From a virus: 49,897 bases of DNA. The notes beneath the pieces were generated by a model. The model worked only from the letters and a program-made list of their open reading frames with translations, did not search any database and was not told the DNA's origin. Position 1 is the first letter of the stretch, and every line of letters starts with the position of its first letter. The stretch lies in UHGV virus genome UHGV-0143838; one strand, 5' to 3'. Positions 44,902-46,436 of the stretch are shown in pieces. The position numbers and the translations under genes are program-made.

Positions 44902-44929
44902 AAATAAAAAGGCCACCCGAAGGCAGCCT
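44902..44929 (-). terminator. intrinsic terminator between the ATPase cargo gene and the holin
   Basis: Minus strand GGCUGCC-UUCG-GGUGGCC (UUCG tetraloop, two G-U pairs) followed by UUUUUAUUU. Confidence 0.5.
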
Positions 44930-44952
44930 GATTTAATTATTCACATTAATCG

Positions 44953-46344
44953 TCACTTAATAGGATTTGGTTTTATGTCGTCAAGCCAGTCGTTATCACC
45001 TCTTAGCTTGGCTACTCGTCCTTCAACATTAGTTAACGGTTTATAAGCAGAGTATTTGCCTATAGCCCTAGCAGAATGCTCTCCAGCAACACGATAATTT
45101 TGGAAGTCCAACTCAAGTCCATGCTGCTCCGCTCTCATTCGAATATAACCACGAAGCATGTTTTCTCTAAATCGAAACCAAGATGGACGATTCCCTAAAG
45201 CAGGGATGATGATGCATCCAAATGTCGGTTTCTTCAATGCATTGAACTTTCGCTCAAACGTGGATTTATCTAAAGGTGTTACATCAAGCGATTTGCAAAT
45301 TTTAACGTACGATTCTGATATATGAGTCTTATGTCTGGTCAAATCAGCCATATCGGACATAGCCCAAAGAATATGCTTATATGACTCATCACGTCCCTCT
45401 GTTGCATCCGTGTAACTTTGCCTTAAAGTTTCCGAGACTGAATCAATTGCATCATTTAACCCTTTAATGAAAAGGTTGTAATCAACAGAGCTGTATTCAC
45501 GTATTGAGCTTTGACATGTTAAAAGGATTTTTTCACAAATAAGATGAATGTAGTTCGGGAACCCGTCACTAAGACCCGCAATTTTATAGCGGACAGAATC
45601 ATCGACAGTCAGGCCAAACTCATCGAAAGCATTATCAATTATTTGAAAACGACCATTCCATGGTAAACTATCGAGATGTACCTGATGTATTTGTCGCTCA
45701 CTTGATTTATGCCCTCCGATTAAAGTAACGAGAGAATCACCAATCCCCGTAAAAATTAATTTTACTTCACACGCCTGATCACCAAGTTGTTTAATGAGTG
45801 ATCCAAACTTTTGTCGTTCTTCATCAGAGTCAATTTGGTCAAACTCATCGATAACTATATAAGGAATCTTTGAGTGAACTTTAGTTAAAAATTGCAACGC
45901 CCGAACGGCTGCAGAAACTGAGTCAATTTTCAGTTCTGGATAATTATATTTTTGATTTTGACCAGCATTGATACCACCAATTCCAGCCACATTTAAGCCA
46001 AAGCTCCATCCCTGTGTATCGATTTTCTTATCCTGAGGTGTGCCTCGCAAAATAATGTCATTCATGACACTTGAAAAAGTGGATTCTTTCTCGCAGCCAA
46101 CCAAAATAGGTTCAGCATCTTCCTGCAGCTTAAAAGCAACAGTTTGCGCTAAGGATGTCTTTCCTACTCCGCGATCACCATAAATGAAAGCATGCCGACC
46201 TGTAGCATAAAGCGCCAATTCGAGATCGGTTACATGTTTTTCACGTCCAAATAACAGTTCCATAGAAACAACTGGACCCGTTGGTCGCAAAACTTTATGC
46301 AGTTTATGCATAAAGTCTCGCAAAGAAAGACCTCCACAGAGCAT
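44953..46344 (-). CDS. P-loop NTPase (AAA-type ATPase) of unknown function; cargo gene in the Q-to-holin slot
   Basis: 463 aa; Walker A GDRGVGKTS and Walker B-like YIVIDEFD; RBS AGGAG 8 nt upstream; AT-rich versus phage backbone; bounded by terminators on both sides. Confidence 0.7.
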   Translation of the reverse strand: MLCGGLSLRDFMHKLHKVLRPTGPVVSMELLFGREKHVTDLELALYATGRHAFIYGDRGVGKTSLAQTVAFKLQEDAEPILVGCEKESTFSSVMNDIILRGTPQDKKIDTQGWSFGLNVAGIGGINAGQNQKYNYPELKIDSVSAAVRALQFLTKVHSKIPYIVIDEFDQIDSDEERQKFGSLIKQLGDQACEVKLIFTGIGDSLVTLIGGHKSSERQIHQVHLDSLPWNGRFQIIDNAFDEFGLTVDDSVRYKIAGLSDGFPNYIHLICEKILLTCQSSIREYSSVDYNLFIKGLNDAIDSVSETLRQSYTDATEGRDESYKHILWAMSDMADLTRHKTHISESYVKICKSLDVTPLDKSTFERKFNALKKPTFGCIIIPALGNRPSWFRFRENMLRGYIRMRAEQHGLELDFQNYRVAGEHSARAIGKYSAYKPLTNVEGRVAKLRGDNDWLDDIKPNPIK

Positions 46345-46405
46345 TTTTATTCTCCTGCATTTTTTTCGAAAACTATAACATCATTCTTTTTGGCAAGCCT
46401 TTCCT

Positions 46406-46436
46406 AAACGCAAAAACCCGCACAATGGCGGGTTCT
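46406..46436 (-). terminator. tR'-like intrinsic terminator downstream of the putative Q gene
   Basis: Minus strand AACCCGC-cauugu-GCGGGUU followed by UUUUG. Confidence 0.55.

Follow-up and report, generated by a model that had tools for sequence, protein, structure and literature searches.

A stand-alone ORC/Cdc6-like AAA+ ATPase carried as cargo between Q and the holin of a Qin-like Escherichia coli prophage, a candidate anti-phage protein

The gene considered here lies on the minus strand at 44953..46344 of UHGV virus genome UHGV-0143838, and the window that we analysed is the whole stretch of 49,897 nucleotides. From an ATG start it encodes a protein of 463 amino acids, hereafter the ATPase, a coding assignment based on the open reading frame (ORF) call, Pfam matches, an AlphaFold2 model, conservation, and the ratio of nonsynonymous to synonymous substitution rates (dN/dS). 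The evidence supports well that the ATPase is a minimal three-domain AAA+ switch of the ORC/Cdc6, ATPase_2 and STAND lineage, and that its gene is a horizontally mobile, stand-alone, single-gene prophage cargo, a so-called moron. That the protein belongs to no system in PADLOC 2.0 or NCBIfam 20 is likewise well supported by the profile comparisons. The ATPase is apparently a sound and undescribed candidate, for which an anti-phage role can be proposed by analogy. Protection of the lysogen, by superinfection exclusion or defence, ranks first among the roles that we weighed and would be the most likely one, with a probability that we place a little short of even.

The original prediction, made from the letters of the window, had described a 463-residue protein with a Walker A and Walker B ATPase core, and the ORF and the conservation of its motifs bear this out. 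The Walker A motif, GDRGVGKTS, occupies residues 56–64 (G56-D-R-G-V-G-K62-T-S64), and the Walker B motif, VIDEFD, residues 164–169 (V164-I-D166-E167-F-D169). In a family alignment of 45 sequences, with relatives at 34–84% identity, G56, R58, G59, G61, K62, S64, D166, E167, and F168 show no variation, V60, D57, and D169 are conserved in at least 90%, and T63 and V164 are not highly conserved. Pfam AAA_16 (PF13191) matches the protein with 39.8 bits (cut-off 32.6) and AAA_22 with 30.1 bits (cut-off 27); the two Walker motifs, together with the AAA_16 score above its gathering threshold, identify the protein as an AAA+ or P-loop ATPase. RefSeq holds it as WP_021562676.1, annotated solely as 'ATP-binding protein'.

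The AlphaFold2 model calculated on the family alignment (predicted local distance difference test, pLDDT, 83.9; predicted template modelling score, pTM, 0.78) gives the protein a three-domain architecture. An N-terminal helix with a GRE motif (residues 1–35, from model and alignment) leads into the AAA+ core (about 30–225), which is interrupted between β2 and β3 by a disordered and poorly conserved insert (106–133). A helical lid (about 229–300) and a helical plus winged-helix domain (about 305–407) follow, and the chain ends in a tail (413–463) that is variable, poorly conserved, and disordered according to model and alignment. With this model, Foldseek retrieved Cdc6 (1fnn) at an E-value of 1e-9, and the succession of AAA+ core, lid, and C-terminal winged helix that characterises the Orc1/Cdc6 type is present in the model. 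The C-terminal part of about 280 residues had been called unassigned in the original prediction, a description not upheld by the model and its fold matches: as modelled, it is the lid and winged helix finishing an ORC/Cdc6-like fold, and since these residues complete the three-domain switch, they would not be an effector. No fused domains were found among the 150 best representatives, the lengths of which are uniform at about 410–465 residues. A sequence search of the Protein Data Bank (PDB), with the single sequence and with the family profile, gave P-loop matches alone.

The FTGIG strand (195–201) and the invariant R217 sit in the model where sensor-1 and the arginine finger (box VII) are expected. 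H212 and S214 are invariant in the family as well, and FTGIG, GFP, and Arg and Tyr residues of the winged helix are conserved. In their sequence, the motifs seem to mix lineages, because GRE and GFP (a GxP) resemble those of STAND proteins, whereas FTGIG and R217 resemble classical AAA+ proteins and initiators. The likeness to STAND proteins lies in LFGREKH at 31–37, with G33 and R34 invariant, and in SDGFP at 259–263, with G261 and P263 invariant; the hhGRExE and GxP motifs of STAND proteins were reportedly defined by Leipe et al. 2004. However, the ATPase stays below the thresholds of nSTAND1 (PF20703; residues 29–332; 22.4 vs 27.1) and NACHT (PF05729; 18.5 vs 26.7). Some of its relatives carry a precomputed nSTAND1 match; the term nSTAND1 is not used in Kaur et al. 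2020. Unlike the STAND immune proteins (Avs, bNACHT, NB-ARC/NLR, and Apaf-1/CED-4), the ATPase has neither an N-terminal effector nor C-terminal sensor repeats, its putative polar sensor-1 residue and candidate arginine finger are closer to classical AAA+ proteins, and the purifying selection on it is very strong.

Orc1/Cdc6 (TIGR02928) is the best NCBIfam match, with 35.6 bits against a cut-off of 181.3 over residues 29–115 alone. The ATPase differs from Orc1/Cdc6 in having the STAND-type GxP (GFP) motif in its lid, in being dispensable cargo, and in lacking any link to a replication origin or replication genes, its gene lying between Q and the holin here and in varied contexts over 138 loci. 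Among the closest known systems is also the archaeal AAA+ family ATPase_2 (PF01637; SSO1545, PDB 2fna; PABY2304, PDB 2qen), to which the similarity is marginal (24.7 bits, under the cut-off of 33.2); compared with it, the bacterial and phage family is about 100 residues longer, has the insert at 106–133 and the tail, and travels as cargo of mobile elements. BrxC/PglY of BREX and TnsC/MuB belong to multi-gene systems, whereas the ATPase has no conserved partner and no PADLOC match to BrxC.

SSO1545-like modules are present in regulators of the MalT/IniR type (PMC5760070), and the ATPase might be a minimal transcription regulator of this kind, which uses its own winged helix and, as lysogenic-conversion cargo, reprograms host or prophage genes. 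We consider this improbable, since the ATPase has neither the ligand-sensing repeats nor the LuxR/OmpR-type output domain of MalT and IniR, no target operon is conserved beside the gene in 79 species, and a host range from Gammaproteobacteria to actinophage relatives speaks against a host-specific regulon.

Against the defence-system libraries of PADLOC-DB 2.0.0 and the anti-phage models of NCBIfam 20, there was no full-length match to a described anti-phage system; the only matches covered 25–45 residues of the P-loop (mad8, PDC-S01, IetA, DS41_1, and IteA) at E-values of 2e-4 or weaker. The impression in the original prediction that no described system could be recognised therein has held in these two libraries. 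A PHROGs scan assigned the protein to PHROG 6841, 'unknown function', and to no described system. Our literature search on the family, by accession, PHROG, related families, and the slot between Q and holin, found no publication. DefensePredictor alone predicts thousands of candidate defence genes (PMC13092281), and WP_021562676.1 was not among the matches listed in those parts of its supplements that were available. Because so many candidates exist, the ATPase is a good and well-delimited one that would not surprise a specialist.

The family is of moderate size and widely distributed. A word-indexed search found 665 homologues, and an exhaustive profile search found 968 clusters (50% identity) at E ≤ 1e-30, a number that rises to 2715 at E ≤ 1e-10. 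Of about 100,000 species genomes, at least 274 carry a member, most of them from Alpha-, Beta-, and Gammaproteobacteria, and 84 viral contigs do so as well; the ATPase itself is carried by 56 of 5426 complete E. coli genomes, each time at 100% identity. The 96 loci that were compared fall into 59 distinct neighbourhoods, and no partner gene is conserved beside the family in 79 species loci, so the gene is a stand-alone unit. This agrees with the lone AAA+ or STAND-like NTPase of the original prediction, as does the occurrence of relatives in accessory regions of prophages and in mobile islands.

The contexts themselves include many prophage accessory slots and islands that bear recombinases. 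The only neighbours that recur among the 79 species loci belong to two recombinase groups, serine recombinases in 15 loci and tyrosine integrases in 13, and their distance from the gene varies; recombinases lie within 10 kb of it in about 28 of these loci. Vibrio prophages carry a homologue after DUF968 with variable cargo alongside; in Erwinia it lies at the prophage end, between the integrase and bacterial icd, and in Edwardsiella between a CI-type repressor and the integrase, beside HipA_2/DUF3037. Two actinophages have a homologue, Gordonia phage Cashline in an accessory region and mycobacteriophage Kevin1 in its central variable region. Within the prophage of Edwardsiella ictaluri (L002–L004, 5570–7122), the homologue and the pair of a HipA_2 kinase and DUF3037 stand downstream of the CI-type repressor; the pair looks like a further cargo module, possibly of toxin or defence type. 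A class II (B12-dependent) ribonucleotide reductase of about 1,230 residues occupies position −1 in three species loci, where the homologue lies directly downstream of an nrdJ-type gene (Methylocystis sp., L115; a Rhizobiales metagenome-assembled genome, L145; and one more). We rejected the reductase as a partner gene, as it marks an insertion point, and this suggests a recurrent insertion hotspot beside nrdJ.

A service to the mobile element itself, either as a DNA-target or maintenance ATPase like TnsC, MuB, and TniB or as a Cdc6-like helper in replication or segregation of integrative elements, is very unlikely: no transposase partner is adjacent and no recombinase is conserved, the recombinases being at variable distances; the gene in the window is situated deep within the late region and not at the element ends; an O/P-type replication module is already encoded by the phage; and TIGR02928 gave 35.6 bits against a cut-off of 181. 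This module, with P/DnaT-like genes, is separate and lies away from the ATPase. A function as replication initiator of the phage was rejected, given that replication module and the dispensability of the ATPase gene.

Some relatives adjoin known defence genes, as the original prediction would lead one to expect. In a Pseudomonas island, the homologue stands next to a Gabija-like pair, and in another island next to a NACHT protein of 1,792 residues; McrBC, an MmeI-type enzyme, methylases, ParE, AbiEii, AAA_21, DUF4238, AbiH, and putAbiC are among the further neighbours in islands, and islands with a homologue also hold MobA and polyvalent ART proteins. Among the matches listed, a Pfam family of defence or toxin–antitoxin type is found within three genes of the homologue in roughly 10 of 51 species loci (~20%), a share without matched control that is weakly supportive of a defence role. 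In Nitrogeniibacter (L097/L098, 6331–7970), the homologue comes straight after the RNA-ligase gene rtcB, and rtcR is close by; the arrangement was seen in one lineage only, and the proximity may reflect a link to RNA-damage responses or a coincidence.

In the window, the host element is a Qin-like lambdoid prophage of E. coli with the gene order hokD, rem, a hypothetical gene, DUF968, DUF1133, the ATPase, a lambda-family holin, a GH24 lysozyme, Rz, DUF2441, HNH, and a P27-type terminase. The ATPase gene is thus flanked, as had been predicted, by a Q antiterminator gene and the holin. The gene upstream encodes a DUF1133 protein (46484..47062, minus strand, from Pfam) that also passes the Phage_antitermQ threshold (35.5 bits vs 26), which justifies the label Q-like. 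Downstream, the holin gene (44521..44856, minus strand, from Pfam and annotation) is the first gene of the lysis cassette. The order of Q, ATPase, and holin recurs with three Pfam families of Q, always upstream, and four holin families, always downstream.

Related E. coli prophages hold other genes between Q and the holin, and the proposal that the position is a cargo slot proved correct. In lambdoid prophages, Stx and the lc and nmpC porins are cargo of this slot, to which we take cspB/cspF of K-12 Qin to belong as well. These cargos share with the ATPase the insertion behind tR', an unusual base composition, and a terminator that precedes the holin; their contents are unrelated, and none of them, including an orphan DNA methyltransferase observed in the present analysis, is an AAA+ ATPase. 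The predicted AT-richness of the gene was confirmed against the structural and early regions, with a guanine–cytosine (GC) content of 0.375–0.41 across 45000–46400 compared with 0.50–0.58; the directly adjoining Q and lysis genes are intermediate (0.47–0.51). The ATPase gene is present in some and absent from other otherwise related phages and is atypical in composition, as is characteristic of a moron, which is said to have been defined by Juhala et al. 2000 and Hendrix et al. as an independent transcription unit of cargo.

The cassette had been described as bounded by terminators, and both hairpins do fold on the coding strand; what did not stand is that they belong to the gene. The upstream element is a tR'-like intrinsic terminator (46406..46439, minus strand) of the Q and late-promoter module, with the stem AACCCGC/GCGGGUU and a U-tract. 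Its core stem at 46434–46415 has a folding energy of −19.7 kcal/mol (z −4.5; none of 200 shuffles equal) and is followed by UUUUUGCGUUU. The hairpin and the 3' end of Q are kept in two prophages without the ATPase (L013 and L014), in which similarity stops right past the T-tract, and the hairpin is missing from L024, whose backbone is unrelated there. Because prophages with a DUF1133-type Q and no ATPase keep it, this hairpin is the tR'-like terminator of the backbone, and from the alignments the cargo appears to enter the slot immediately behind it.

Between cargo and holin lies an intrinsic terminator (44900..44929, minus strand) composed of AGGCUGCC-UUCG-GGUGGCCU and UUUUUAUUU; its hairpin at 44929–44910, which bears the UUCG loop, has a folding energy of −13.1 kcal/mol (z −2.9) and precedes UUUUUAUUU. 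We aligned the window with cassettes that encode ATPases 85–95% identical in protein sequence and reside in other backbones. The downstream stem is maintained among them by compensatory and wobble changes, the loop being UUCG, AAAU, or AUAU, and past its T-tract (about 44900) similarity to all other backbones ends. About 350 other E. coli genomes match 44880–44917 alone, sharing the same holin, terminator 3' arm, and T-tract, and their cargo is the orphan DNA methyltransferase with small hypothetical genes. The holin leader, T-tract, and terminator 3' arm (44880–44929; L179 and L180 around 3500–3560) were identical despite the other cargo. We also observed the downstream terminator accompanying the ATPase onto different holin backbones. 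In these sequences, it looks like a shared linker where recombination swaps the cargo. Both terminators are common to other cargos and are therefore edges of the slot rather than private to the ATPase gene.

Within the slot, the gene has a ribosome-binding site of its own, as predicted, AGGAGA at 46356–46351 (minus strand), which ends 7 nucleotides before the ATG; GGAGA is kept in all six aligned cassettes. Further upstream, an extended −10 element, TGtTATAGT (46372..46380, minus strand), is a consensus match with no good −35 at 17 nucleotides. The pattern TGnTAnAnT is kept in six of six cassettes, including L024, in which similarity starts at that element and continues into the ribosome-binding site. 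Elements of the extended −10 class stand upstream of 22 of 132 family genes and of 37 of 1275 control genes (odds ratio 6.7, p = 2e-9). These data suggest that the element at 46372..46380 could be the gene's own promoter. A candidate late promoter resembling PR' (46509..46536, minus strand; TTGGCA, 16 nucleotides, TAAATT) was found by consensus scan, within the 3'-terminal part of the Q-like gene. Its block is kept in every DUF1133-type prophage aligned, and by analogy with PR'/tR' of lambda it may act as the late promoter. In lambda, Q-modified polymerase reads through terminators after induction; by the same analogy, a terminator before the holin would be what a cargo bearing its own promoter needs in the lysogen.

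Between the cassettes on different backbones (45000–46344 vs L018–L024), dN/dS is 0.016–0.034, and most pairs have reached saturation at synonymous sites even though the proteins are 85–95% identical. Such low values mean that the ATPase is functional and tightly constrained. A decaying pseudogene was rejected on the low dN/dS and the invariant catalytic residues; three viral contigs do carry split copies. In these contigs (L026, L048, and L055), the homologue is divided into two ORFs by a frameshift or stop codon, so copies are occasionally inactivated despite the strong purifying selection elsewhere.

For protection of the lysogen, our preferred reading, the extended −10 promoter of the gene itself would drive its transcription in the lysogen, the downstream terminator would keep this transcription out of the holin, and after induction the Q-modified polymerase would pass both terminators. 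ATP binding might drive the assembly of an ATPase oligomer, with the invariant R217 serving as the inter-subunit arginine finger. The oligomer would form on incoming or replicating foreign DNA via the winged helix, and the bound ATPase could then prevent the invader from replicating or from completing its late development, with no need for a separate nuclease or toxin domain. We propose assembly on DNA because of the closest mechanistic analogues of the fold and the lack of an effector; Orc1/Cdc6, TnsC, and MuB assemble on DNA. Expression in the lysogen, the defence role, DNA binding, and oligomerisation are all properties that we infer for the ATPase. In its strongest form, the proposal would make this effector-less ORC/Cdc6-like ATPase by itself a complete anti-phage system, a 'rogue initiator' that in the lysogen would assemble in an ATP-dependent manner on the DNA of an invading phage, for example at its origins, ends, or replication intermediates, which we regard as unlikely.

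The Tai system shows that lysogens of a lambdoid phage can express a defence gene that lies in the region under Q control (PMC11364771). In cluster N mycobacteriophages, the central variable region is the site of all characterised prophage defences, and lysogens express the genes that it contains (10.1101/2023.01.03.522681). Kevin1 gp30 is a distant homologue of the ATPase (25% identity over 86% of the query, E 3e-23); it is an orpham (PMC6544188), and none of the characterised cluster N defence proteins (Charlie gp32, Panchino gp28, Phrann gp29/30, and Butters gp30/31) is related to it.

Several observations weigh against a protective role in the lysogen. The ATPase contains no effector domain, so killing by abortive infection would be without an obvious executor. 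The association with defence genes is modest, roughly one-fifth of loci within three genes among the matches listed and no matched control, and many chromosomal neighbours of the homologues are housekeeping genes. With its very low dN/dS and saturated synonymous sites, the gene does not resemble the diversifying sensors that many defence proteins have. Sensor regions of many immune proteins diversify fast, and the constraint on the ATPase is unusually strong for a gene suspected of taking part in an arms race. The promoter is a consensus match alone, and AT-rich cargo could inflate the enrichment of extended −10 elements. Across the family, a terminator behind the gene is no more frequent than behind control genes (12% vs 10%). 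The gene is also co-oriented with the late operon and follows directly after Q in many phages, an arrangement that fits a role in lytic growth as well.

Such a role would make the ATPase a late-phase accessory factor of the phage, transcribed after induction, chiefly from the late promoter that depends on Q, and acting in lytic growth, where it might counter host or satellite defences, remodel or protect replicating or packaging DNA, or exclude competitors in the induced cell only. Besides the co-orientation and the place as first gene after tR', the recurrence of the order Q, ATPase, and holin with three Q and four holin families agrees with this possibility; so does a fold shared with DNA-handling AAA+ proteins (Orc/Cdc6, TnsC, MuB, and RFC), and strong purifying selection would fit a conserved molecular target. 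We nonetheless find it, the strongest of the rival readings, rather doubtful. Close relatives of the prophage do without the gene, which is hence dispensable, and a conserved promoter-like element separates tR' from the start codon. The family also occupies positions that are not late, between repressor and integrase, at a prophage end, and in central regions of actinophages transcribed leftward or independently, and it occurs in non-phage islands.

If the ATPase gene is indeed a defence gene, it would represent a widespread single-protein system consisting of an ATPase switch and a winged helix alone, which would have to act with none of the nuclease, toxin, or signalling modules that known systems typically have. 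In the strongest form of the proposal, the defence would rest on occupancy and be carried by phages of Proteobacteria and Actinobacteria in about a thousand sequence clusters. A defence role would also provide a first function for the structurally related, uncharacterised ATPase_2/SSO1545 group. The effector-less architecture would be the interesting feature, were activity shown. If the gene does not serve defence, the family would be one more conserved phage accessory ATPase, even then a well-defined target, since it is obvious which construct and which mutants (K62A, E167Q, and R217A) are needed. Whatever the function, the locus gives a clear picture of cargo swapping in lambdoid prophages, with insertion behind tR' and a shared terminator junction before the holin.

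Downstream of the holin, the lysis cassette continues with the GH24 lysozyme (44041–44517) and Rz (43577–44044), and a second AT-rich cargo gene (42863–43471, minus strand; GC about 0.38–0.40) encodes a DUF2441 protein of 202 residues between Rz and HNH/terminase. In relatives, the DUF2441 slot holds ClpP and a hypothetical gene (L014), several small hypothetical genes (L013), or iss (L180), and defence genes of the Tai type have been described from the corresponding site, which lies upstream of the packaging module (PMC11364771). The sole Rfam match of the window is the sok antitoxin RNA (49047–49221, minus strand, 113 bits), which overlaps a hok-type ORF (48897–49109). This ORF is hokD in RefSeq, and the two form a type I toxin–antitoxin module in this prophage, some 3 kb upstream of the ATPase gene.

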